23,575 bases of DNA from Candidatus Nanopusillus sp. (GCA_046533775.1 JAWDOO010000008.1:1-23575), one strand, 5' to 3'. Positions 441 through 23,569 are shown, numbered from the stretch's first letter. The notes: generated from the sequence alone by a model not told the origin. Made by a program: numbers and translations.

Positions 441-464
441 GAGGGAATATATAGTCTCAGGAAC
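441..464 (+). other. 5' strand of the pre-23S rRNA processing stem
   Basis: 441-459 (gagggaatatatagtctca) is the perfect reverse complement of 3371-3389. 460-464 (ggaac) pairs with 3364-3368 (gttcc), leaving a 2-nt bulge at 3369-3370. Archaeal pre-rRNAs are excised from stems of this kind. Confidence 0.8.
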
Positions 465-3372
465 CCGCCCGGTGGATGCCCGGGCTCGGAAGCCGAAGAA
501 GGGCGCAGCAAGCTGCGAAAAGCTGGAGGAAGGTGCATGCAACCGTTGATCTCCAGATTCCCGAATGGGATATCCTGCCGAAAGGCATCCCGTAAGGGAG
601 GGGAACGCGGGGAAGGGAAACATCCTAGTACCCGCAGGAATAAAAAACAATTTGTGATTTCCTGAGTAGGGGCGACCGAAAGGGAAGAAGCCCAAACCGA
701 ATCCTCTAAAGTAATTTAGAGGAGATGTGGGGTAAAGGAACGGGAGCTTCCCGTTATTATATCCTCAGAACTCCGGTGAAAGTCCGGGGCCGTAGAGGGT
801 GACAGCCCCGTATGAGGATATAATAATGGGATTTCTCGTTTCCGGAGTACCGGCGGTTGAATTTCCGTCGGGAATTTGGGGGAAACTAGCCCCCAAGGCT
901 AAATACTCTCCGAGTCCGATAGCGTATTAGTAGGGCGACCGAAAGGTGAAAAGAACCCTTGGTAGGGGGTGAAAAGAGCCTGAAACCGGGCGGGGATTGT
1001 CTGGTAGGGCTAGTTAAGCACCTTATCTGGGAAAATCTGGTGACAGGTGAGTACCAGATAAGGTGCTAGCTAGTTCTACCGTGAGTTTTGAAGAACTTGC
1101 GGGGGAGTATACCCGAGTGGCGAGGTTAAGGTTATACCGAAGCCATAGGGAAACCGAAAGCCCGTAACCTGGTTTCCAGGTGAGGGGCGCTGTCCTATAA
1201 GGGCGGTTTAGTCACTCGGGTATGACCGGAAACCGGGCGATCTACCCCGGGGCAGGGCGAAGCGGGGTTTCCCGTGGAGGCCCGAAGAGGTGGGGCTTAC
1301 CTCTCTCATGACCTCGGGGTAGAGGTGAAAAGCCACTCGGGCCCGGATATAGCCGGTCCCCGCCGAAACTGACCCCAGCCAGGTCTCGGGTTAGGATCCC
1401 TATGGTGTAGAGAGACGGATTCTGTACGGGTTTCCGTACGGAGTCCAACTCCGAAGCCATAGGGTCCGTAGCCCGGGAAACGGGGATTGCGGGAAAGCCG
1501 CAATTCCGAGACGGGAACAACCGAGACCGAGGTTAAGGCCCCAAAGTGCTGGCTGAACGATTTTGAAGGAGTCTGTCCCCTAAGACATCGGGGATGTGGG
1601 CCTAATAGTGGCCATCATCTAAGGAGTGTGTAACAACTCACCCGACGAGGGGATAGGCTCCGAAAACGGACGGGTCTAAGCCAGCCGCCGAGACCTCGGT
1701 CCGCTGGCATTGCCAGTGTGAGGTAGGCGGGCGTCCCGATGGCCTAGAAGGGTTCCTGAAAGGGAGCCTGGAGCCGTCGGGAATGAAGATCCCCGCGGTA
1801 GTAAGAATCAGACGGGTGAGAATCCCGTTGGCCGAAGGGGGAAAGGTTTCCCAGGCAATGAAGATCAGCCTGGGGTTAGTCGATCCTAATCCAGGCTCCG
1901 AGTGGAGTCTGGAGAAAGGGAAAGGGGTTAATATTCCCCTACCGCTCCGATAGATGCGGTAACGCAACATCCTTTCCCGACCCGGAAGGCTAGGCATACA
2001 CAGGGGTGGGGTAAAACCCACTTACTGTGCCAAGGGGGATAGGACCGGAGAGTGCCGTCATGGCGAGAACCGGTCTAAACCCTGATGGGCCCGAAAGGGT
2101 TATGCCGAGGCCTTCCGGCAATGAAAAGGGAAAGGATGCGATTCGGAGCGATCGTACCGAAATCCATCATAGGTCCCCTGGGTGAGGAGCCTAAGGCCGT
2201 GGGGGTCAAGCCGGTCTAGGGAACTTGGCAAATTGGTCCCGTAACTTCGGGAGAAGGGATGCCTGCGGTGTGGACCGCAGGTCGCAGTGACAAGGGCGGG
2301 CGGACTGTTTATCAAAAACATAGCTCTCAGCAAGCCCGAAAGGGTTTGTACTGGGGGTGACGTCTGCTCAGCACCGGTATCTGAATCCCCCGTTCAAGGG
2401 GGGTAAGGACCGGTAAACGGCGGGGGTAACTCTGACCCTCTTAAGGTAGCGTAATGCCTTGCCAGTTAAATGCTGGCTCTGCGAACGACGTAACTAGCCC
2501 GCCACTGTCCCGGGCCGGCGCCCCCTGAAAAGCTATCCTGGTGAGAAGGCCAGGGACTTCCGATGGGTAAAAAAGACCCCGTGAAGCTTAACCGCAGCCT
2601 GTTGTTGCTCTGAAGAACCTGGTGTGTAGGGTAGCGGGGAGCAATGAATTCCTGCCGCTAGGTAGGAAGGATGCGACGATGAAACACCCGCCTCTGGGTT
2701 CTTCAGGGCTAACCCGAAAGGGGACAGCGGCAGGTGGGCGGTTTGGCTGGGGCGGCACCTTGCCGAAAAGATATCGGCAGGGTCCATAAGGTCAGCTCAG
2801 GCGGGTCAGGAATCCGCCGTAGAGGACAAGGCCAAAAGCTGGCCTGACTGTGCCCTGATCATCAAGGGGCACAGGGGGGAAACCCGGGCCTAGCGAACCC
2901 CGTACTCTCACTAGTGGGGGTACGGGCTGGCGGAAAAGCTACTCCGGGGGTAACAGCGCCGTCGCGGGCGAGAGCCCCCATTGACCCCGCGGTTTGCGAC
3001 ATCGATGTCGTCTCTCCCCATCCTGGTGGTGCAGAAGCCGCCAAGGGTGGGGGTGTCCACCCATTAAAGGGGATCGTGAGATGGGTTCAGAACGCCGCGA
3101 GGCAGTTCGGTTATAACTGTCGGAAGTGCTGGCTGCCTGAGGGGAAGGTCCGCCTAGTACGAAAGGAACGGCGGGCCGGGGCCTCTGGTATACGGGCTGT
3201 CCGAGAAGGGCATGCCCGGTAGCTACGCCCTAGGGGATAAGCCCTGAAAGCATCTAAGGGTGAAGCCCTCCTCAAAAATAGGCAGCCATTAAGGGGTCGG
3301 ATAAAAGATCCGACTCAGAGCGGCGGTGTAAGCTCCGAAAAGGAGTTCAGCCGACCGCTTGAAGTTCCCGTG
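460..3372 (+). rRNA. rrl: 23S (LSU) ribosomal RNA. The ends are approximate (+/-15 nt).
   Basis: A GC-rich island in AT-rich DNA. The 5' region reads ...CCCGGTGGATGCCCGGGCTCGGAAGCCGAAGAAGGGCGCAGCAAGCTGCGAAAAGC... Peptidyl-transferase-ring elements are present (CGATGTCG at ~3001-3008, GGGTTCAGAACG, CAGTTCGG at ~3080-3112). The length of ~2.9 kb is normal for archaea, so no intron-sized insertion is present. Confidence 0.95.
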
Positions 3373-3389
3373 AGACTATATATTCCCTC
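3364..3389 (+). other. 3' strand of the pre-23S rRNA processing stem
   Basis: Reverse complement of 441-464 with a 2-nt bulge (see the 5' strand feature). Confidence 0.8.
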
Positions 3390-3401: not shown

Positions 3402-4895
3402 TTATTCAATATTATAATATCTCAAAACATTTTCTTTATTATAATAATACATTTGTATAATTTTACTGAATGTTTGAAAATCTGAAATATTTAATTCAGA
3501 TAATCTATATAATAATTTTACTCTTTTAATATATTCATCATACAATTCTTTGTATCTTATTCCATAATCATTTTCAATTAATTTAAACAAATATTTCTTA
3601 GGATTTTCTAAATATTCTCTTTTAAAAGGATTCCATTTATATGCAATATTAAATTTATTATATCTTATAATTTCATTAACTTCTTTAATTCTCCTCAAAT
3701 TTGTTCCAATAAAATTATCATGTTGCATTATTACGACAACATTTAATAATTCAATTAATGTTGGAGATAAATTTATTGGTGGCGTTGTTAATCTACTTAT
3801 TAGAGCTCTTGTACTTTCAGCATGCATTGTTGATAAAGATGAGTGACCAGAAGCCATTCCTTGGAACATTACGTATGCTTCTTCTCCCCTTACTTCTCCA
3901 ACAATTACATAATCTGGTCTTTGTCTAAAAGACATCCTTAATAATTCAAACATATCAATTTCTCTATTTTTATCAGAAGAATATTTTACTACGGAAGGAA
4001 TCCAGTTTGGATGATATAACTTTATTTCTCTTGTATCTTCAATTGAAACAATTCTAGCATTTGGTGGTATAAACATAGATATCGCATTTAGCATTGTTGT
4101 TTTTCCAGAAGCTGTACCTCCAATTATGATTATATTCTTTCTAAATTCTACTGCTAGCCATAAATATGCAAATATTTCTGGAGTTGCACTTCCTAATCTT
4201 ATTAATTCTATTGGGGTCCATGGAATTTCCCTAAATTTTCTTATTGTAAATGTTGGACCATGTGTAGTAATTTCTTGTGAATATGTTGCATTTATTCTTG
4301 ATCCATCTGGTAATGTTGCATCTAAAATTGGTTCTGCATATGATATATGTTTTCCAGCCCTCAAAGCAAATTTTTCAATTAAATCTCTAATTTCTTTATC
4401 ATTTAAAATTATATTTGTCCTTAAATTTCCAAAATATCTATGAACAACAAATATTGGATAACCTGGACCGGAACATTCAATATCTTCAATCAATGGATCT
4501 CTTAATAAAGAATCTACCTTATTATATCCATAAAGATCCCTAAAAATATAATAAAATATTTTTTCATAAGAGGATTGTCCTAATTGTATTCCTAAATCAT
4601 TTAATACAAAATCATATAATCTTTGTAAATAATTTATAGCATCATTTAAATTACTAATTTCAGATAATTTAATATATAATAATTTTTCAATATAAAAAAT
4701 TATATTTTTATATATTTTTTCCTCATTTTCAGTTAATTTTGGCTCTATTATTTCGTAAACAAGATCATATGTACTTCTATCAAAATATATATGTGCATAT
4801 GAAAAAGGTTCTACAATTGGATAGGTTATATTTGTTTCAAATTTATTTTTAGGTACATTTATTTTTATATCATTAATAAATTTAATGTTTATCAT
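3402..4895 (-). CDS. Type IV filament secretion ATPase (FlaI/PilB/GspE-VirB11 superfamily)
   Basis: 497-aa ORF with Walker A GGTASGKTT, Walker B-like RPDYVIVGEVRGEEA and a His box MASGHSSLSTMHA. The N-terminal region resembles FlaI-like proteins (PIVEPFSYAHIYFD...YEIIEPKL). Confidence 0.85.
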   Translation of the reverse strand: MINIKFINDIKINVPKNKFETNITYPIVEPFSYAHIYFDRSTYDLVYEIIEPKLTENEEKIYKNIIFYIEKLLYIKLSEISNLNDAINYLQRLYDFVLNDLGIQLGQSSYEKIFYYIFRDLYGYNKVDSLLRDPLIEDIECSGPGYPIFVVHRYFGNLRTNIILNDKEIRDLIEKFALRAGKHISYAEPILDATLPDGSRINATYSQEITTHGPTFTIRKFREIPWTPIELIRLGSATPEIFAYLWLAVEFRKNIIIIGGTASGKTTMLNAISMFIPPNARIVSIEDTREIKLYHPNWIPSVVKYSSDKNREIDMFELLRMSFRQRPDYVIVGEVRGEEAYVMFQGMASGHSSLSTMHAESTRALISRLTTPPINLSPTLIELLNVVVIMQHDNFIGTNLRRIKEVNEIIRYNKFNIAYKWNPFKREYLENPKKYLFKLIENDYGIRYKELYDEYIKRVKLLYRLSELNISDFQTFSKIIQMYYYNKENVLRYYNIE

Positions 4896-4936: not shown

Positions 4937-6316
4937 ATGATTAATAAAAATGTTCTGATAAACTTAGAAAGGGATATAGAAGAAATAGAAAGATATATTG
5001 ATAAATTAAAAAATATTTTAAGAGAAATAAAGAGAAAGGAAGAAATGAAGAAATATTTTTATAAATTATATTTGGATGGATATTTTGATGAAAAAGAATA
5101 TAAAAGAAGGTTAACAATAATTGAAAAGAAAATAAAATATTTAGAAAAATCTAAATACTTAATATTATATGATTTAATTAATTTAATAAATAATAGTCAA
5201 AAAGTAATAGAATTTCTAAAGAATATAGAAGAAAAAAATGAAGAAGAAAATAAAAATATACAATATTATGAAATGAAAATAAATGATACAATAAATTATA
5301 TTAGTAAAGTTTATCCAGAAATATTTAAGAAAGAAGAAATAAAGATTGGTAAGAAATTTATTGAGGCATCAAATGTACTATTTAGAAAGAAGGAAGAAAA
5401 AAAGAAGAAAATAAAATTTAAATTAAAATTAACTGAAGAACGTAAAATAAATTATTATCAAGAGATTAAAAATATATTAATAAGATTTTCATATAAAATA
5501 TTTGGAGGAATATCTAGAAGAATTTTAAATAATAGTCCAAAATTATATTTCTATTTAAAATATTCATTAAAAGAGGCATATTATAATATAGAACCCGATG
5601 AATTTTTATCTATTATATTTTTATTTTCATCAATTATTATTATTATTTCAATATTTATATCATTATATCTTCTAAATATTTTCTATTTAATTTATGGTTT
5701 AATAGCATTTTTATCTGTAGTAGGATTACTTATACTATATTTCAATTATAAAAAACAGAGTATAGAAGAAGATATAAATAGAAATTTACCATTTGCTATA
5801 ATACATATGGCATCATTAGCAGATGCTGGGATAGAAATAAAGTATATAATAAAAATAATAAGTGAAACTGAGGAATATGGATATTTATCAAAAGAATTTA
5901 AAAAAATATATGATAAAATAAGTTTGGGAGAAGGATTAGTAGAATCATTAAGATCTGTTGCGGATGATACGTTATCAAAAGATCTAAAAGATTTTTTAGA
6001 TGAATTAATATTAACAATTACGTCTGGAAGAAAGATATCAGAATTTTTAATATTATATTCTCAGCAAGAAATGATTAGATATAATTCATTTTTAAAGAAA
6101 ATTAATCAGGTAATGAAGACATTTTCAGATTTATATGTTGGAATGGTATTAACAATTCCAATGATAATAATATCAGTCGGAGTAATGTTATTATCAATAT
6201 TACAACAAACATACAATTTGAATATTCAAGGAATATTAGAAATAATTACATATGTAGGATTACCTGCTATTAATATTGGCTTTATAATATTGTTTGATAA
6301 ATTAACAAAAGAATGA
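4937..6316 (+). CDS. Type IV filament platform protein, part 1 (FlaJ/TadB/TadC-like, one T2SSF-type domain) with a long N-terminal coiled-coil extension
   Basis: 459-aa ORF. Residues ~1-175 are Lys/Glu-rich and look like coiled coil. These are followed by TM helices and a T2SSF-like cytoplasmic domain (NLPFAIIHMASLADAGIEI...ISLGEGLVESLRSVADDT...ITSGRKISEFL), then further TM helices. Confidence 0.7.
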   Translation: MINKNVLINLERDIEEIERYIDKLKNILREIKRKEEMKKYFYKLYLDGYFDEKEYKRRLTIIEKKIKYLEKSKYLILYDLINLINNSQKVIEFLKNIEEKNEEENKNIQYYEMKINDTINYISKVYPEIFKKEEIKIGKKFIEASNVLFRKKEEKKKKIKFKLKLTEERKINYYQEIKNILIRFSYKIFGGISRRILNNSPKLYFYLKYSLKEAYYNIEPDEFLSIIFLFSSIIIIISIFISLYLLNIFYLIYGLIAFLSVVGLLILYFNYKKQSIEEDINRNLPFAIIHMASLADAGIEIKYIIKIISETEEYGYLSKEFKKIYDKISLGEGLVESLRSVADDTLSKDLKDFLDELILTITSGRKISEFLILYSQQEMIRYNSFLKKINQVMKTFSDLYVGMVLTIPMIIISVGVMLLSILQQTYNLNIQGILEIITYVGLPAINIGFIILFDKLTKE

Positions 6317-7137
6317 AGGAAGAAATAATTGACATACTTATTATTATAGTTCTTATATTTTTATTTTATTTTATATTTAATTTTAGTATTTTAAATTCAA
6401 TTGTAACTGGGATAATAGTTGGTATATTTCCATATTTAATCTATCAAACAATTGTTAATAATATAGAAAAAGAAAAAGAGGAACAATTTATTAGATTTTC
6501 AATTGATTTGATTGGATTATTAAAATCCGGACTATCATTACCAATTGCATTAAAGCAATTGGAAAAAAATGATTATGGAAGAATTAATGAACTAGTAAAA
6601 AATCTATCTTCAAGAATTGATTGGGGTGTTAGTATTGAAGATTCATTTACAGAATTTGCAGAGGAAAGTAATAATAGAATGATTAAGAGAACTATACAAT
6701 CTTTAATAGATATATATAAGGAAGGTGGAAATCTTGAACAAGGCTTGGAAGCAATCATAAATAGTATAATGGAAATTAGAAAAATAAAAGAAGATAAAAA
6801 GGCAGAAATACATGAAAATATAATTCATTCTTATATTGTATTCGCTTTTTTCTTAGGTATAGTATTTACATTTCAAATATTTTTATTACCATTCTTACAA
6901 ATTTCATTACCTGGACAGGCTTCAAATGTTAATTTTAATTTTATAAATAATCTAATGTATTATATGTCAATAATCCAAGCAGTTTTTGCTGGATTATCAA
7001 TGGGAAAGATGTATGATGATTCTTATAAAGCCGGTGCAAAATATGTAGCAATATTTCTATTTATGGTTATAATATTATTTAATATTATAATTCCAATTGT
7101 TCCAAAAGGTATGTTTTTAATAAATATAAATATATAA
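6313..7137 (+). CDS. Type IV filament platform protein, part 2 (FlaJ/TadB/TadC-like, one T2SSF-type domain)
   Basis: 274-aa ORF. Its ATG overlaps the upstream stop codon (ATGA at 6313-6316). TM helices flank a T2SSF-like domain (FSIDLIGLLKSGLSLPIALKQL...WGVSIEDSFTEFA...KEGGNLEQGLE). Confidence 0.7.
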   Translation: MKEEIIDILIIIVLIFLFYFIFNFSILNSIVTGIIVGIFPYLIYQTIVNNIEKEKEEQFIRFSIDLIGLLKSGLSLPIALKQLEKNDYGRINELVKNLSSRIDWGVSIEDSFTEFAEESNNRMIKRTIQSLIDIYKEGGNLEQGLEAIINSIMEIRKIKEDKKAEIHENIIHSYIVFAFFLGIVFTFQIFLLPFLQISLPGQASNVNFNFINNLMYYMSIIQAVFAGLSMGKMYDDSYKAGAKYVAIFLFMVIILFNIIIPIVPKGMFLININI

Positions 7138-9320: not shown

Positions 9321-9321
9321 T

Positions 9322-10815
<1,494 letters not shown>

Positions 10816-15422: not shown

Positions 15423-15679
15423 AAATTTTAATATTTTATATTAATCCATTTTATTTATTAAATTAATTTATTTTCTAAGATTATTTTCATTTTAATTAAT
15501 TTATGTAAATAATTGAAATTCTTCTTTATCGTGTTATTTCTAATTCTTATTATTAGATTTTCTACTAATTTTTTCATTATATAAATTAATAATCCTTTTA
15601 ATTATTTATTCTTCTTGTTGTATTTCTGTTGCTTAAGTATAACTTTAAAAAAGAATGTATTCAAATATATAAATTATCT

Positions 15680-16831
15680 ATGACATATAAACTTAATAAA
15701 AAAGTAGAAGAATTATTCTTTGAAAGATTCAAAGATTTTAATCCAATTCAAAAAATAGCAATTCCTGAAATATTAAATGGAAATAATACTTTAATTGTTG
15801 CACCTACAGGATCTGGAAAAACAGAGGCTGCAATATTACCAGTATTTTCAAAAATATTGGAATTAAAGGAAAAAGGAATTGAAAATCAATTATTAGGAAT
15901 TTATATATCTCCATTAAGGGCATTGAATAGAGATTTATTGGATAGAATAAAATGGTGGTGTGATAATTTAGGAATAACTGTTGCAGTAAGACATGGAGAT
16001 ACAGAAGAGAAAGAAAGGGCTAGATTATCCAAAAAACCTGTAGAATTTTTAATAACAACGCCAGAAACTTTCCAAATATTATTTTTAGGAAAAAGATTAA
16101 GGGAACAATTAAAAACATTAAAATATATTATTATAGATGAATTACATGAATTATTGAATGAAAAAAGAGGAATACAACTATCTTTAGGTTTAGAAAGATT
16201 GGTAAATTATGCTGGAGAATTTCAAAGGATTGCATTATCTGCAACAATAGGAGATTTGGATGAAGCTGCAAAATTTATTTTTGGATATAGGAATTATAAA
16301 ATTGCATATTGGTATTCAGAGAAAAAATATCATATAGAAGTATATTATCCAGAAATTGGTGAAGAAGATTTGGAATTATCAAGGAAATATAATTGGAATC
16401 CAAAAATAGCATGGAGTTTAAGAAAAATAAAGGAAATATTGGATAAACATAGATCTGTAATAATATTTGTAAATACTAGAGAAATGGCAGAATTATTGTC
16501 TTCAAGATTTAAGGTTTGGTTACCTGAATATAAGATTGAAATACATCATAGTTCTTTATCAAGAGAAGTAAGGGAAAGAAATGAAAAATTATTTAAGGAA
16601 GGGAAAATTAAAGCAATTATTGCGACATCTTCTTTAGAACTTGGTATAGATATTGGATATGTTGATGCTGTTATTCAATATAATTCACCCAGACAGGTTA
16701 CAAGGTTAATACAAAGGATTGGAAGAGCAGGTCATAGATTACATGAGGTATCTATTGGATATATAATTACAACAGATATAGACGATTATGCAGAAAGTTT
16801 AGCAATTAAAAAGTTTATATTGGAAAAATAA
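15680..16831 (+). CDS. lhr: Lhr-type superfamily-2 DEAH helicase, RecA1-RecA2 core only (no winged-helix or domain-4 region)
   Basis: Motif I APTGSGKTEAA, Ia/Ib YISPLRALNRD, motif II IIDELH, motif III LSATIGD, motif VI QRIGRAGH. I prefer the ATG at 15680 (MTYKLNKK...). The ORF track starts at an upstream TTG at 15629. Confidence 0.8.
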   Translation: MTYKLNKKVEELFFERFKDFNPIQKIAIPEILNGNNTLIVAPTGSGKTEAAILPVFSKILELKEKGIENQLLGIYISPLRALNRDLLDRIKWWCDNLGITVAVRHGDTEEKERARLSKKPVEFLITTPETFQILFLGKRLREQLKTLKYIIIDELHELLNEKRGIQLSLGLERLVNYAGEFQRIALSATIGDLDEAAKFIFGYRNYKIAYWYSEKKYHIEVYYPEIGEEDLELSRKYNWNPKIAWSLRKIKEILDKHRSVIIFVNTREMAELLSSRFKVWLPEYKIEIHHSSLSREVRERNEKLFKEGKIKAIIATSSLELGIDIGYVDAVIQYNSPRQVTRLIQRIGRAGHRLHEVSIGYIITTDIDDYAESLAIKKFILEK

Positions 16832-16835
16832 ATTA

Positions 16836-18134
16836 TTAATAACGAGTTTTTAATTCTTCTAAAAATTTTATTCTTTCATCAACTGAATCTAATTCTCTTT
16901 TTATAAATTTTTCTAATTCGTCAGGTTTGATATGAGCAATTAAAATGCTCCAAAGTCTTGAGCTAATCTTTTTTTTAAGTGTAGTTTCATATTTATGAAA
17001 CATCTGCAATAATAATGTTTTTGCTTTATTGTATTCATTTAGTGTGTCGTTTATACTTTCTAATATTTGGTTTTTATATCCCAAAGCTTTTTTATGCTCA
17101 TCATCTAATATCTGCTGAAGTTCCGATATAACTTTTTTATCTATATTGGAATCTTTATCAAGTTCTTTAATTTGGTTTAATACATCATAATAAAGTTCTT
17201 CTATTGATCGGATTTTTCGTAATTTTTCTATATCTTCTATATCAGTATTTTTTTTCTTATCTAATTCATCTAAAAAAGCATTTAGTTTATTTTTTTGCTC
17301 TTCTTTCAAATTACTCATAATTTTATTTAAAGTTTCTTCATATCTATTTCTTAACCCACTAAAAAATGCAACATGATCCATTTTTATATAATATAAAGTA
17401 TCATTAAATTTCTTATCTGCAGTCTCAAGAGCCTTGCTTAATTCTTCATAAAGGTTATAGTTTTCTTTTAATACATTTAATAGTTCTGATATATTCCTTA
17501 CATCTACTTTAGAAAGATTTCTTTTATTCTCTAATTCTTCTAATTCTTCCATTGTCTTTAAGAGACTTTTTTTTACATCAGCTTCAAAAGATTTAGTTGC
17601 ATAATGAAAGCTTTTTCCATAAGAAATAGCAGCTCTTCCAAAGAAAAATAAGGCTACTAATGCGAGTACTAATAAAATAAATCCATAAAGATTAAGTAAA
17701 AATGGTATAGCATAACCTATTGATATTGCAGAAAATATGCTTAGAATAAATATAAATAATATTTTTGCTTTTTTCATCGTTTCACTTTCAGATATATTAG
17801 CTCCTTTTATTTTTTGCATAAATATTTCAAAGAGAAATGCATATATTGCAACAAAGAATAAAGTAACTATTAAAAATGTTATAATAGTCCAAACATAAGA
17901 TGGTATTCCATTAATAGATATAAAACTAGCTAAAGATTGACCCGCAGTTGAATAACCATTAATTGAAGAGTTAATAATCCATTGGATAATAGAATTTGAT
18001 TCTAAACTACTTATTGCTGCATTGTTTTGTGCAGATGTTCCTTGGGAATATACTGAATAAATAAATCCTATTAAGAATGGGACAGTAAATATAGCTATTA
18101 GTAACTTCTTATTAATATTTTTTATACCCTCCAT
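16836..18134 (-). CDS. Membrane-anchored coiled-coil protein, cassette copy 1 (unknown family)
   Basis: 432-aa ORF. It has an N-terminal signal-like helix ending VYSQG, a Ser/Asn-rich ~45-aa segment, three further hydrophobic helices, and then ~260 aa of Lys/Glu/Leu-rich helical sequence. Confidence 0.7.
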   Translation of the reverse strand: MEGIKNINKKLLIAIFTVPFLIGFIYSVYSQGTSAQNNAAISSLESNSIIQWIINSSINGYSTAGQSLASFISINGIPSYVWTIITFLIVTLFFVAIYAFLFEIFMQKIKGANISESETMKKAKILFIFILSIFSAISIGYAIPFLLNLYGFILLVLALVALFFFGRAAISYGKSFHYATKSFEADVKKSLLKTMEELEELENKRNLSKVDVRNISELLNVLKENYNLYEELSKALETADKKFNDTLYYIKMDHVAFFSGLRNRYEETLNKIMSNLKEEQKNKLNAFLDELDKKKNTDIEDIEKLRKIRSIEELYYDVLNQIKELDKDSNIDKKVISELQQILDDEHKKALGYKNQILESINDTLNEYNKAKTLLLQMFHKYETTLKKKISSRLWSILIAHIKPDELEKFIKRELDSVDERIKFLEELKTRY

Positions 18135-18229
18135 TTTATTATATGAATTTGTTAAAATTTATAAATTATTTCCTTACAATTATAACAAAAAAGGAATAAA
18201 TATAAAAAATTAAATAAATAAATAAAAAG

Positions 18230-18346
18230 TTATAATGTGCTATCTTTATATTTATTCAAGGATGTTTTCTTCATAACTTCTTTTATTTCTAAAGCTTTTT
18301 CCAATGCTAGATTTAATGCATCATTTAATTCTTTATTAGAAATTTC
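18230..18346 (-). pseudogene. Remnant copy of the rrp41 3' end (last ~38 codons plus stop codon), with no start codon
   Basis: 18281-18346 matches 19973-20038 at 64 of 66 nt. In the same frame the copy reads EISNKELNDALNLALEKALEIKEVMKKTSLNKYKDSTL then a stop codon, versus EISNKELNDALNLALEKALEIKNLMRNNILNHLSSDNFVY then a stop codon in genuine rrp41. An in-frame stop codon lies upstream of the fragment. Confidence 0.8.
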
Positions 18347-18351
18347 GTATT

Positions 18352-18399
18352 TCTCTAGGTTTAGAAAGATTGGTAAATTATGATGGGAATTTCAAAGGA
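18352..18399 (+). pseudogene. Remnant copy of an internal lhr segment (codons SLGLERLVNYAGEFQR), frameshifted
   Basis: 18352-18399 matches 16181-16229 with 2 mismatches and a 1-nt deletion. The reading frame terminates a few codons later. Confidence 0.75.
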
Positions 18400-18550
18400 A
18401 GAGATCTTCTTTAATATTTGGGAAATGAAAAATTAACATGTCTTTTGTAAAGTTTATTTAGGTCTTTTAGATTATCTGTAAGATAGTGAGATGAATCTTA
18501 TTAATAGACCCTTCTAAAGATTTAATTCTCTTAAATACAATTTCATCATT

Positions 18551-19867
18551 TTATTTTCTTTTGAAGGTTTTAAATGCTCTATAACTAGATGCTATAGATT
18601 TCGAAATACTTCTACTTAATTTATTAGTCAAGTATAATAATTTTTTTGGATTTCTTTTAAATTTACGTAAAGATTCAAATAATTTTTTCGTAGATTTATC
18701 TGTTTCAGATAATATTTCCTCTTTTTTTAATGGAGATATATTTTGATTTTTATCAACAGCAGCGATAATGTTACTTAAGTTTTGTATTTGTTTTATTAGA
18801 GTTTTATTATTAACTAGAGATAAAAGAGCATTATTATTAGAAATTTCTTTTAAATTATTAATTATTTTAGTTTCAGATTTCCTATTAACAGCTTCTATAA
18901 AAGTTAATAATCCATTTAAATATGCGAATGTTTTCTGACCCTTTTTGTATGTAGTATTTAATCTTACATTCAAGTCATTTAGTATATTTCTTAGTTCCAT
19001 TAAATATTTTGGTGTAAATTTATTTGTTCTAAATATTCTATTTCCAAACCTTCTTAATAAAGAATAATTGCTAAGCATATTATTTATTATTCTATTTAAC
19101 TGTTCGACTTCATTTTTAGCCTTATTATATGTATTATCAAAATTTGAAGAATAATCTTTTAATGTATCTCGAGTTAATTCTTTATTTTCAGTTTCTTTTA
19201 ATAGGTTAGATATTATATTATTTAAAGTTTCTATATTCTTTTCTATAGAATCTAATAAGCCTCTTATTTGAGGATGATTTAGTATTTTATATAATTTATC
19301 TATGTCTTTTAGAATTTTATCTGTATCTTTATCAAAATCCTTAACATCTGATATTATTCTTGAGAAAAAGCTTGGTAATCTAGGACTAATCTTGCCTAAG
19401 GTTTCTTTAAAACTTTCCAATTTAGATTTACCAATTCTAAATACTTTTATTATAAACGCAATAATTAATATTGGTATAACAAAAGGCCAAAAGAAGAATG
19501 TGAGGGGTAAAGATATTACTAAGGAGGTTATAAGCTTTTCAGATTCTGGAGCTTGACTCTTAAAAGCATTTATGAATCTTCTGGACATAAAAAATAAAGC
19601 AAAAAATGAAACTAGAATTGGTAAATTTTCTATTAGATATGGTAAAATTTTTAAAATAATTGGTTCTAGGGGACCTAAATATTGAGAAAGCGTACTAAAA
19701 TATTGAGAAAGAGTATTAGCAGTAGATTCTAATAGTTGTTTATCTATATATAATGTACCTATAGATTCATTATACCATGTATAAGCATAATTATTTGATT
19801 GTGAATAAATGTTGGTAAAGTTTAGAATAAAGATTAATATCATCAAATATTTATAATTTTTTATCAT
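18551..19867 (-). CDS. Membrane-anchored coiled-coil protein, cassette copy 2 (same architecture as 16836-18134)
   Basis: 438-aa ORF. It has a signal-like helix ending IYSQS, a short polar segment, a cluster of hydrophobic helices with an intervening PESEK loop (ISESE in copy 1), and then ~290 aa of Lys/Asn/Leu-rich helical sequence with a basic tail. Confidence 0.7.
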   Translation of the reverse strand: MIKNYKYLMILIFILNFTNIYSQSNNYAYTWYNESIGTLYIDKQLLESTANTLSQYFSTLSQYLGPLEPIILKILPYLIENLPILVSFFALFFMSRRFINAFKSQAPESEKLITSLVISLPLTFFFWPFVIPILIIAFIIKVFRIGKSKLESFKETLGKISPRLPSFFSRIISDVKDFDKDTDKILKDIDKLYKILNHPQIRGLLDSIEKNIETLNNIISNLLKETENKELTRDTLKDYSSNFDNTYNKAKNEVEQLNRIINNMLSNYSLLRRFGNRIFRTNKFTPKYLMELRNILNDLNVRLNTTYKKGQKTFAYLNGLLTFIEAVNRKSETKIINNLKEISNNNALLSLVNNKTLIKQIQNLSNIIAAVDKNQNISPLKKEEILSETDKSTKKLFESLRKFKRNPKKLLYLTNKLSRSISKSIASSYRAFKTFKRK

Positions 19868-19915
19868 AATGATCTAAAAATATTTTATACTTTATAAAGG
19901 TTGTTATAAAAAATA

Positions 19916-20671
19916 CTAATAAACAAAATTATCTGAAGATAGATGATTTAATATATTATTCCTCATTAAATTTTTTATTTCTAAAGCTTTTTCCAATGCT
20001 AAATTTAATGCATCATTTAATTCTTTATTTGAAATTTCTCCGTCCAATTGTATTAAAGTAAATTTTTTCTCTGAAGGAATTATTGCAACCGGTATATCTG
20101 TAGCTCTTCCTTCTCCATAATATTCTATATATTTAGATTTTTCAGGATCTTTTCTTAATTTTTCAGAATCATAATCTTCTTCTTCTTTGTTTAAATCTAC
20201 AACAATTTTTTCCCCAACTTTTCCAACTGCTAAACCTATTACTAGATCCTTCATTGGAATACCTGCTAAAGATAATGCCAAAGATGCAGCATTTATACTT
20301 GCAGTTCTTGTCCCAGCATCTGCATTTAATATTTCAATATATATATCTATAATACTCCCAGGAATTTCTTCTAATAATAATGCCGGTTCTAATGCTCTCT
20401 TAATTACTTCAGATATTTCTATTTCTCTTCTACCTGGTGTAGGCTTTTTCCTTTCAGGTGTAGAAAATGTTAGCATATTGTATCTAACCCTTAAGAATGC
20501 TTTATCATAATCCAAAGACATTTTTGAAGATTTTGGTCCGTATACAGCAGCTAATGCAACAGTATCTCCGAATGAAAATATTGCAGATCCTTTTGCATTA
20601 TCTACTACATTTAGTTTTATATCTATTTTTCTTAGTTCATTATATTCTCTATCATCAAATCTTTTTACCAT
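19916..20671 (-). CDS. rrp41: Exosome complex RNase PH-like subunit Rrp41
   Basis: 251-aa ORF: RKIDIKLNV..AKGSAIFSFGDTVALAAVYGP, PGRREIEISEVI, ADAGTRTASINAASLALSLAGIPMKDLV, VVDLNKEEED. It carries a ~15-aa insertion (DSEKLRKDPEKSKYIEY) relative to the usual DL..EE....GE.D.PVA spacing. Confidence 0.9.
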   Translation of the reverse strand: MVKRFDDREYNELRKIDIKLNVVDNAKGSAIFSFGDTVALAAVYGPKSSKMSLDYDKAFLRVRYNMLTFSTPERKKPTPGRREIEISEVIKRALEPALLLEEIPGSIIDIYIEILNADAGTRTASINAASLALSLAGIPMKDLVIGLAVGKVGEKIVVDLNKEEEDYDSEKLRKDPEKSKYIEYYGEGRATDIPVAIIPSEKKFTLIQLDGEISNKELNDALNLALEKALEIKNLMRNNILNHLSSDNFVY

Positions 20672-22418: not shown

Positions 22419-23060
22419 TTACTTTTTGGTATTTTCTGATAACTCCTCCATAGCTTTTAAAAATGCTGTGGGAATTTTTATTATATTACGTTTTTTCTTT
22501 GGACGTTCTTCTTTGTGATATACCCAATATATAGCTGCAAGTACAAATCCTATTACTATAAGTAATGGGAGTAAACCAGTATATATCAATTCAAGCATTA
22601 TTTCTGTTATTATATTTTGAGCGGATGCTCCAAATCCGTTAAAATCTATTGAAGATGCATATAGAAATGCAAATAGAACTGTAAGCGTTATAAATCCAAC
22701 AATAACATTATGAGAATATTGTTTATATCTCTCAAATTCTTCATCTCCTTTATATGGTTCTGATATACCAGCCATTAATGCAATGATCATTAGAATAAAA
22801 AATATAACAAGTACTTCAAAAAAGAAGAATGATATAAAGTTTGATGTAAATATAACATCAGATATATTATATAAATAATAGAATGCTATTACCATAGAAA
22901 TTATTGCATACAATTTTTCTTTATTTGGATTATCCTTTCCAAACAAACCAGTTTTTCTAAGAGATCCATATAATAATGAAAATACTAATAAAAAAGGTGC
23001 TACAAATGTAAATATGCCATATTCTGAAAACAAATTATAAATAGATGATGAGAAATCCAT
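22419..23060 (-). CDS. Small multi-pass membrane protein with a basic C-terminal tail (paralog of 23066-23569)
   Basis: 213-aa ORF with ~5 hydrophobic helices. Its C-terminal half (...LLPLLIVIGFVLAAIYWVYHKEERPKKKRNIIKIP) parallels the neighbouring ORF. Confidence 0.6.
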   Translation of the reverse strand: MDFSSSIYNLFSEYGIFTFVAPFLLVFSLLYGSLRKTGLFGKDNPNKEKLYAIISMVIAFYYLYNISDVIFTSNFISFFFFEVLVIFFILMIIALMAGISEPYKGDEEFERYKQYSHNVIVGFITLTVLFAFLYASSIDFNGFGASAQNIITEIMLELIYTGLLPLLIVIGFVLAAIYWVYHKEERPKKKRNIIKIPTAFLKAMEELSENTKK

Positions 23061-23065
23061 TTTAT

Positions 23066-23569
23066 TTAGTTAGATTTAGGTATTACATATATTTGGCCCC
23101 CACTTTTTTCTTCTTTCTTTTCCTCTTTCTTTTCTCCACCACCAGCTAACCACATTAATACTAAGAATATAAATCCAAACATAATTAATAATTCTAAAAT
23201 ACCAGATTGCATAAGATAGTTGATTGTATATGATAATAGAGATATTAGTGATGATGAAGATGAAGAGGAAGAACCAGTTATACTTAAAGAATTTATAGCT
23301 AACCACAATATTATTCCTACAACAAGGAATGCAAAAAATGCTCTTAACCATGAAGGTATCTTTTTATTTGTAATTGTTAATACAATAACTATTAAAGTAA
23401 ATCCAATTATAGCTATAGTAGCATTAGGAATAAAAGATAATAACCATCTTACTAAATTTTGATTATATATTGATAAAAGAGCAAATCCGAGAGAAAACAA
23501 TGCGTTTAATTTTCTACCTACAGTATCATCAGGACTTGTTTTTAATAAATTAGATAATTCCAATATCAT
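23066..23569 (-). CDS. Small multi-pass membrane protein with a Ser8 tract and a Lys/Glu-rich tail
   Basis: 167-aa ORF with ~4 hydrophobic helices, an internal GSSSSSSSSL tract, and the tail ...ILELLIMFGFIFLVLMWLAGGGEKKEEKKEEKSGGQIYVIP. Confidence 0.6.
   Translation of the reverse strand: MILELSNLLKTSPDDTVGRKLNALFSLGFALLSIYNQNLVRWLLSFIPNATIAIIGFTLIVIVLTITNKKIPSWLRAFFAFLVVGIILWLAINSLSITGSSSSSSSSLISLLSYTINYLMQSGILELLIMFGFIFLVLMWLAGGGEKKEEKKEEKSGGQIYVIPKSN

Follow-up and report, generated by a model that had tools for sequence, protein, structure and literature searches.

The window analysed here is a stretch of 23,575 nt (G+C 29.5%) from Candidatus Nanopusillus sp. (GCA_046533775.1 JAWDOO010000008.1:1-23575), which belongs to the Nanopusillaceae (Nanoarchaeota). 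Nanoarchaeota are obligate ectosymbionts with tiny genomes. The local gene order reads L35Ae, metallophosphoesterase, lhr-type helicase, gene A, scar, gene B, rrp41, rrp4 and a CBS-domain gene (Table 1). In this order, rrp41 and lhr are conserved housekeeping anchors, genes A and B are cassette genes lying between them, and the scar is a 170-nt feature at 18230-18399 in which a displaced copy of the rrp41 3′-end is joined to a piece from the interior of lhr. This feature very probably marks the right-hand edge of a duplicative insertion that took place long ago at the rrp41 3′-end in Nanopusillaceae. The gene labels rrp41 and lhr, which the original prediction had assigned to this DNA from its sequence alone, are essentially right (best matches, RNase_PH/TIGR02065 and PRK13767, respectively), with lhr comprising only the N-terminal half.

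When the segment 18101-18600 is compared with the whole window by self-BLASTN, two direct-repeat pairs stand out. First, 18267-18346 (hereafter core′) matches 19959-20038 (core) within functional rrp41 at 91.25% identity over 80 nt without a gap (E 1e-27), and a repeat finder reports this pair as the sole long, high-identity direct repeat in the window. The inner 66 nt, 18281-18346 versus 19973-20038, differ at only two positions, 18310 and 18338. Second, 18352-18399 matches 16181-16229 within lhr at 93.9% over 49 columns, with two mismatches and one gap (E 3e-15). The minus-strand frame of the rrp41 copy stays open down to a stop codon at 18230-18232, ending ...EISNKELNDALNLALEKALEIKEVMKKTSLNKYKDSTL-stop. 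Both copies are direct with respect to their parents and lie on the same strand, and the order of the two segments is inverse to the parental order. Four of these points had been read from the sequence beforehand, namely the 64-of-66-nt match, the diverged in-frame tail, the frameshifted lhr match and the inverse order of direct copies, and each item reappears in the present comparison. At the junction, 18346 is the last position of the rrp41 match and about 18350-18352 the first of the lhr match, with a filler of 3-5 nt between them. The next-best self-match reaches only E 6e-5 and AT-rich background makes up the remainder, hence low-complexity coincidence does not account for the two repeat pairs; nowhere else in the window is there an equally good match. 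A weak direct match of the spacer that follows gene B to a stretch inside that gene (18440-18480 versus 19282-19325, 79.5% over 44 columns, E 6e-5) is probably a matter of chance in AT-rich DNA.

A scan for Rrp41 in GTDB species-representative genomes gave nine Nanopusillaceae loci, and scanning metagenomes brought in about 60 more close loci. The order rrp41-B-A-lhr is present in five of the nine representative loci, the window counted. Over 18135-18550, junction included, the window is 87% identical to Nanopusillus DS.bin.8 (L004), 82% to the Ca. Nanobsidianus stetteri single-cell genome AB-777_F03 (L001) and 77% to Ca. N. stetteri Nst1 (L002), and it is 80% identical over 261 nt to the complete genome of N. 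acidilobi 7A (L003, CP010514). A single high-scoring segment pair runs across the lhr piece, the junction and core′ in 24 loci, that is, in the window and in 23 assemblies from different projects, which include the closed N. acidilobi genome and one single-cell genome. The aligned junctions have one common breakpoint. The edge of the lhr piece lies at the equivalent of 16181 in nearly all B-bearing loci (within 0-4 nt), and L041 and L073 keep about 65 nt of lhr. Since the window is a contig of a metagenome-assembled genome, a chimera or mis-join in assembly might be suspected; the identical junction and syntenic intergenic region in the 23 other assemblies, CP010514 and AB-777_F03 among them, exclude it, and the lineage-specific substitutions and indels that the scars carry are those expected of real inherited DNA, so that the probability of such an artefact is next to nil. 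The joint arose once, before the split of lineages that now stand at a synonymous divergence (dS) of about 0.2-0.35 in housekeeping genes. With 24 assemblies carrying it, the event is ancient, inherited and reshuffled across Nanopusillaceae, and is neither recent nor private to the genome of the window.

The last 40 or so codons of rrp41 fall into distinct tail types, by which the two sides of the inserted DNA can be told apart. The type I tail (38 codons) is found in the outgroup loci L008 and L075 and in all loci without gene B or a B remnant, and its length is ancestral because the outgroups have it. Among the examined loci, the type II tail, ...NILxHLSSxNFxY-stop, occurs only before gene B or its 5′ remnant (shown for L007), plus L049, where it directly precedes the cassette gene C. 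In the window, the functional rrp41 ends in a type II tail and the scar in a type I tail, ...EIKEVMKKTSLNKYKDSTL-stop. Five contigs (L061, L062, L065, L071 and L088) carry gene A with neither gene B nor a scar, and their functional rrp41 tails, ...EIKE[IV]MK[EK]TILNTYK[AT]STL-stop, lead straight into gene A; the segment equivalent to 18135-18229, which is conserved across relatives, is directly continuous with the functional rrp41 stop in these loci. The tail segment of the window's scar is 78-81% identical to these A-only tails and 60-72% identical to every other tail type, and to judge from these identities it corresponds to the functional rrp41 C-terminus of A-only genomes. L061, L065, L071 and L088 differ from the window by one clean indel flanked by the duplicated rrp41 core of about 80-93 nt. 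For example, L071 1-637 corresponds to window 20582-19946 and L071 545-3239 to window 18346-15634, and the 93-nt overlap is the duplicated core. As the alignment with A-only loci takes a single indel, the window carries an inserted module of about 1.6 kb, from 18347 to about 19972, in which the type II tail is followed by a TATA-like box, gene B, the 150-nt spacer and finally the lhr piece, with the resident rrp41 3′-end just beyond. The A-only loci can thus be regarded as empty sites, representing either the pre-insertion or a reverted allele.

In order and orientation, the repeat pairs match a tandem-duplication joint exactly, and had the lhr-to-rrp41 interval simply been duplicated in situ within one lineage, A and B would be diverged paralogues. 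In line with this, A and B are alike in architecture, each having a signal-like N-terminus that ends in ...IYSQ or ...VYSQ, and the spacing of the TATA-like box is identical before the two genes. Such a duplication requires units that are homologous throughout, however, and this is not found for A versus B, for the tails or for 18400-18550 versus the lhr 3′ part. No homology between A and B is detectable by profile comparison (hhalign probability 0.7%; a pairwise BLASTP alignment gives 30% over 111 aa, E 1e-3), although identity between the repeat cores is 91-98%; the two rrp41 tails belong to separate types that do not align, the scar's type being functional in A-only genomes; and the same B module also precedes the non-A cassettes C and R1-R2-C. 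Even if an in-situ duplication had been followed by replacement of one copy, inter-haplotype recombination would still be needed. On these grounds an in-situ origin is unlikely. The scar nevertheless resembles a tandem-duplication joint or a Campbell integration in the inverse segment order, in the direct copies and in the duplicated homology that flanks the unit, and it is, like them, reversible in principle through recombination between the repeats. It differs in that species-level lineages have passed the joint on and reshuffled it, and in that the two units contain non-homologous genes and different rrp41 tails, from which it follows that at least one partner came from another haplotype. 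The original prediction had read the scar as the novel joint of a duplicative event over the lhr-to-rrp41 interval at a variable cassette locus and had preferred a divergent allele to a simple in-situ duplication; the first reading agrees with the roughly 60 related loci, and the second with the empty sites, the tail types and the lack of homology between A and B. It had also named a tandem duplication or a re-inserted circle as the mechanism, of which the topology of the joint stands; to the sequence, a tandem duplication, a Campbell-type re-insertion of a circle and an unequal crossover would look the same, as they yield one product.

The favoured history, one illegitimate joint followed by reshuffling through homologous recombination, would start from an ancestral A haplotype, rrp41 (core, A-type tail)-promoter-gene A-lhr. 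To judge from the lhr piece at the module's far end, the source of the incoming DNA would have been a homologous locus with B beside lhr, in another haplotype with the order rrp41 (core, type II tail)-gene B-lhr. A single illegitimate break-and-join would then have linked the internal lhr position equivalent to 16181 with the rrp41 position equivalent to 20038, and the product would have been rrp41-core-(tail II-promoter-B-spacer-lhr piece) followed by core′-A tail-promoter-A-lhr. Because the incoming module brings a replacement C-terminal tail, rrp41 would have remained intact, and the resident rrp41 3′-end would have been displaced downstream as an untranslated orphan and left to decay. Most of the co-transferred lhr 3′ part would later have been lost by deletion. 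Afterwards, the core/core′ repeat of about 80 nt and the conserved flanks would have served as substrates for ordinary homologous recombination, which would have set the same B module and junction before A, C and R1-R2-C and also produced deletion derivatives. We infer this order of events, as well as the recombination machinery, from the present-day arrangements.

Several points weigh against this history. A donor haplotype in which B is followed by a full lhr was not found among the roughly 60 loci, and the single link between the B module and such a source would be an lhr piece of 49-65 nt. The 150-nt spacer is not accounted for by this history. The 80-nt repeat could in principle be collapsed in metagenome contigs, which would create apparent empty sites; against such a collapse, three to four separate assemblies supplied the A-only contigs, whose tails are intact and conserved. 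Finally, core′ has decayed very unevenly, its identity to the functional core ranging from 98% to about 77% across loci. Repeated refreshment by recombination that brings in recently functional 3′-ends could produce this pattern, and unnoticed gene conversion is an alternative cause. Comparison of the scars with the functional cores of their own and of other genomes gave no sign of concerted evolution (paired Wilcoxon p = 0.2, a weak test with 66 nt).

Some integrative elements insert at the 3′-end of a tRNA or protein gene and rebuild it. If a small mobile element had integrated site-specifically at an attachment site in the rrp41 3′-end, carrying a replacement 3′-end along, the outcome would resemble what is seen here: direct repeats of the 3′ part of the target flank the insert, the target gene is intact with its 3′-end restored by the module, and the presence/absence polymorphism is clean. 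The resemblance ends with the content of the module. Gene B is the only open reading frame (ORF) of at least 90 aa in 18347-19972, it encodes a membrane helical bundle, and no integrase or recombinase domain was found in it with Pfam, NCBIfam or PADLOC. At its distal end the module carries a fragment of lhr, a chromosomal neighbour, a sign that the module originated at this same locus. No relatives of A or B were found on IMG/VR viral contigs, nor were viral or plasmid copies found. The breakpoints also vary, with one crossover inside core′ and a switch just after tail II in L049. Integration of this kind is thus highly improbable.

Across about 60 loci, the rrp41-lhr interval occurs in at least seven arrangements, namely B-scar-A (17 loci), A only (5 loci), C only (10 loci), R1-R2-C (6 loci), B-scar-C (2 loci), B-scar-R1-R2-C (3 loci) and tail II followed by C with no intact gene B (7 loci; a B remnant of about 70 nt is demonstrated in L007, and none lies between tail II and C in L049). 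The scar tails of the B-scar-C and B-scar-R1-R2-C loci are 91-97% identical to the functional tails of the C or R1-R2-C haplotypes. The scar is accordingly, in every combination, the former functional rrp41 3′-end that belonged to the cassette downstream of it. A 1-nt deletion at the start of core′ is common to some B-A loci and to the B-C and B-R1-R2-C loci; as these share it despite their differing tails, at least one crossover took place inside the 80-nt core′. Several pairs of loci illustrate such exchange. One clean indel of 1.5-1.9 kb, the B module, separates L041 from L061 and likewise L045 from L059, and divergence is equal on its two sides. L048 and L049 are 98.9% identical through rrp41, yet the former continues with B-scar-A and the latter with C, the switch point of L049 lying just after tail II. 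L007 is a mosaic: its tail II, together with the B promoter and a gene B remnant of about 70 nt, is fused to L006-like sequence. A near-identical pair of B-A and A-only loci, as would be left by a very recent event, was sought, and the best pair is 95% identical, the same as its flanks. In a tree built from the upstream flank, loci of different haplotype classes are mixed throughout. The locus is, then, a hotspot of gene exchange in nanoarchaea of hot springs, a small replacement and additive flexible island for fast-evolving membrane proteins.

In the common haplotype in which tail II is followed by C across a gap of about 540 nt (L007 10834-11380; L006 12094-12609), the gap retains roughly 70 nt of B along with the first 42 or so codons of the reverse-strand gene R2. 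This arrangement looks like a deletion derivative, as if a single step had removed R1, the scar and the greater part of both B and R2 from a B-scar-R1-R2-C ancestor.

As for the scar itself, it is a non-functional, decaying pseudogene relic that acts as a marker and an occasional substrate of cassette exchange. Among 24 scars, roughly half or more contain frameshifts or premature stops, and every scar lacks a start signal and has the antisense lhr piece upstream. Maintenance for a function, whether as a small ORF, as an RNA (antisense or regulatory) directed at rrp41 or lhr, or as a selected recombination anchor, might be suggested by the 38-codon frame that is intact in about 9 of the 24 scars and by the intergenic region, which is 77-87% identical between named species when the gene A protein is only 47-50% identical. 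This conservation, however, is no higher than the dS of the flanks (0.18-0.36) predicts for neutral DNA. The orthologues of A and B show a dS of 0.26-0.44, and their nucleotide identity (70-81%) is similar to that of the intergenic region. In addition, the start codon is absent, Rfam at the gathering threshold finds only the 23S and 16S rRNAs in the whole window, a relaxed Rfam search at E <= 1 on 18050-18650 gives no match and ARAGORN predicts no tRNA. With the frameshifts and stops added, a maintained function is very unlikely. A structured RNA in the spacer was rejected (consensus fold of -6.1 kcal/mol with one covarying pair), and so was a C/D-box sRNA sought there by eye, the candidate C box of which is not conserved in L004. 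Local alignment of the spacer 18400-18550 with the lhr 3′ part is no better than with shuffled sequences, 72 of 300 of which score as well, and the spacer was accordingly rejected as a remnant of that part. The only constrained element nearby is plausibly the promoter of gene A (TATA-like box at 18158-18165), which lies outside 18230-18399.

Genes A and B have flank-like dS in their orthologues and a non-synonymous divergence (dN) about ten times higher. By the NG86 method, dN/dS of gene A is 0.4-0.95 in the N-terminal part and 1.2-2.0 in the C-terminal half, and that of gene B is 0.7-1.5 in the C-terminal part, the membrane-proximal N-terminal parts of A and B overall lying at 0.2-0.95; these values are rough, as the regions are just 25-35% identical and the codons used are biased towards A and T. 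Despite the AT-rich genome, each of the 39 ORFs examined is intact, indicating that the cassette genes are kept as coding. Searches of A, B, C, R1 and R2 with Pfam, NCBIfam and PADLOC, and of the L008 genes X1-X3 with Pfam, returned only sub-threshold coiled-coil noise. The B family comprises 75 clusters at 90% identity, in which all organism-named members are Nanopusillus or Nanobsidianus, and no source assigns it a consistent function. An AlphaFold2 model of gene B has a mean predicted local distance difference test (pLDDT) score of 71; residues of about 150-420 are helical with scores of 73-97, and residues 1-150 are of low confidence. A Foldseek search of this model against PDB gave only generic helical bundles (best E 0.6). 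With signal-like N-termini and hydrophobic segments in both sequences, the architecture and evolutionary rate of A and B would suit proteins at the cell surface or in host contact. This is in line with the elevated density of non-synonymous single-nucleotide polymorphisms (nSNPs) reported for hypothetical, predicted surface-exposed proteins of clade 1 Nanoarchaeota (Jarett et al., 2018; PMC6142677), a study that does not mention the rrp41-lhr cassette locus. The C-terminal half of gene A (16836-17570) cannot be aligned at the nucleotide level with the L061 and L065 alleles, and the 5′ half aligns at 84-86%. This divergence could represent a second, intragenic allele replacement or simply very fast evolution.

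In mechanism, the arrangement comes nearest to two known kinds of system. In orphan rhs-CT/cdiA-CT systems, displaced 3′ tips keep a conserved core without initiation signals and recombine with the main gene, the conserved stretch in Salmonella being 522 bp at 95% (PMC3967940). Similarly, a conserved gene body here has a variable 3′ tip, a new tip arrives with its downstream gene, the old tip and its gene are pushed downstream, and the displaced rrp41 piece keeps a core of about 80 bp at 91-98% without a start signal. The host gene is, however, an archaeal housekeeping exosome subunit and not a polymorphic toxin of the kind with YD/Rhs repeats or a CdiA VENN motif, its tip is just 16-19 residues long and has no toxin domain, and the linked A and B are membrane helical proteins that match no toxin or immunity family. 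The linkage between rrp41 tail and cassette is most simply one of physical proximity. Replacement flexible genomic islands are exchanged by homologous recombination (PMC4033161), and the rrp41-lhr locus has several traits in common with them: the same slot between core genes holds, in all strains, unrelated genes of similar predicted type, flanks of 98.9% identity enclose different content, and breakpoints fall in conserved flanks or internal homology. Unlike those islands, the rrp41-lhr island is tiny (1-4 genes in 1.4-3.6 kb), its variation is partly additive, an illegitimate joint is visible with the scar itself being a crossover site, and surface exposure of the products is a prediction only. 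The locus fits the flexible-island concept at miniature scale with an unusually legible illegitimate joint, and is not a new mechanism.

The rrp41-lhr locus offers a concrete, sequence-level example of how predicted surface-protein genes diversify, in which one slot, fixed between two housekeeping genes, holds cassettes in at least seven arrangements and crossovers occur in an 80-nt homology patch. It also indicates that the C-terminal tail of a housekeeping gene can be swapped as a by-product of cassette exchange, and it accounts for a pseudogene-like rrp41 fragment that recurs in annotation. Proteins A and B are candidates for study in the cultured N. acidilobi-Acidilobus system. One may speculate, with considerable doubt, that the B module is an integrase-free plug-in cassette still mobile in Nanopusillaceae populations, having its own rrp41 tail on one side and a portable 80-nt homology patch on the other and being inserted and popped out by homologous recombination of the host cell, and that A, B, C, R1 and R2 form a diversifying repertoire that helps decide which crenarchaeal host or virus is engaged. 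The surrounding cassette locus is of more interest than the scar, and would be more so if the B module were actively mobile and the cassettes governed host or virus interactions.

Table 1. Features of the rrp41-lhr interval in the window (positions counted from its first nucleotide)
Feature	Position	Strand	Basis or remark
Lhr-type DEAD/DEAH helicase, right-hand conserved anchor	15629..16831	(+)	Pfam DEAD + Helicase_C; NCBIfam PRK13767
Parent of the scar's lhr piece	16181..16229	(+)	BLASTN
Cassette gene A, 432 aa	16836..18134	(-)	Signal-like N-terminus, transmembrane segments conserved over ~195 aa, hypervariable helical C-terminal half
Gene A upstream region, A haplotype	18135..18229	(-)	TATA-like box TTTATAAA at 18158-18165, 24-31 nt before ATG
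Displaced (orphan) rrp41 3′-end	18230..18346	(-)	Core′ 18267-18346 (duplicated target), A-type C-terminal tail, stop 18230-18232
Illegitimate junction	18347..18351	none	Filler GTATT; breakpoint identical in all 24 B-bearing loci
lhr-like internal fragment, frameshifted	18352..18399	(+)	BLASTN; distal end of B module
Spacer 3′ of gene B, 150 nt	18400..18550	none	Kept among B modules (alignments)
Cassette gene B, 438 aa, module cargo	18551..19867	(-)	Signal-like N-terminus, transmembrane segments, helical bundle
Gene B upstream region	19868..19915	(-)	TATA-like box TTTATAAA at 19891-19898, 24-31 nt before ATG
Type II C-terminal tail of functional rrp41	19916..19972	(-)	Ends ...NLMRNNILNHLSSDNFVY-stop; arrived with B module
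rrp41 core, duplicated target/homology region	19959..20038	(-)	Direct repeat with 18267-18346
Functional rrp41 (exosome RNase PH subunit), left-hand conserved anchor	19916..20671	(-)	RNase_PH domains; TIGR02065 best match

The helicase of the right-hand anchor, 400 aa long, aligns to positions 15-407 of the 877-position PRK13767 model and thus covers the RecA1-RecA2 half at the N-terminus, and no C-terminal half is present in the window. Relatives have a helicase of equal length with 91-97% aa identity, so the shortness of lhr is not a product of the insertion event; it may represent a split or reduced gene, a common state in Nanoarchaeota. On the other side of the interval, Rrp4 is short (199 aa). 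The usual order of the archaeal exosome operon is rrp4-rrp41-rrp42. In the Nanopusillaceae loci L001-L008, rrp4 adjoins rrp41, but rrp42 is next after rrp41 in none of them, and variable cassettes fill the slot where the operon order would put rrp42.

Elsewhere in the window, the 23S (448-3382, plus strand) and 16S (9321-10813, minus strand) rRNA genes are unlinked and on opposite strands, with about 6 kb of protein-coding genes between them. A T2SSE-type ATPase gene (3402-4895, minus strand) lies beside two overlapping plus-strand ORFs, 4937-6316 and 6313-7137, which have one T2SSF (FlaJ/TadC-like) domain each and together resemble a platform-protein gene that has been split. Of the two high-nSNP proteins to which Jarett et al. 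(2018; PMC6142677) draw attention, one is a FlaJ/TadC homologue. Upstream of the CBS-domain gene are two membrane proteins without a family, 22419-23060 and 23066-23569, both on the minus strand. The 213-aa membrane protein upstream of the CBS gene shows 58-86% aa identity and a dN/dS of 0.2-0.7, compared with about 0.1 in its neighbours, and has a weak paralogous match immediately upstream in several loci.

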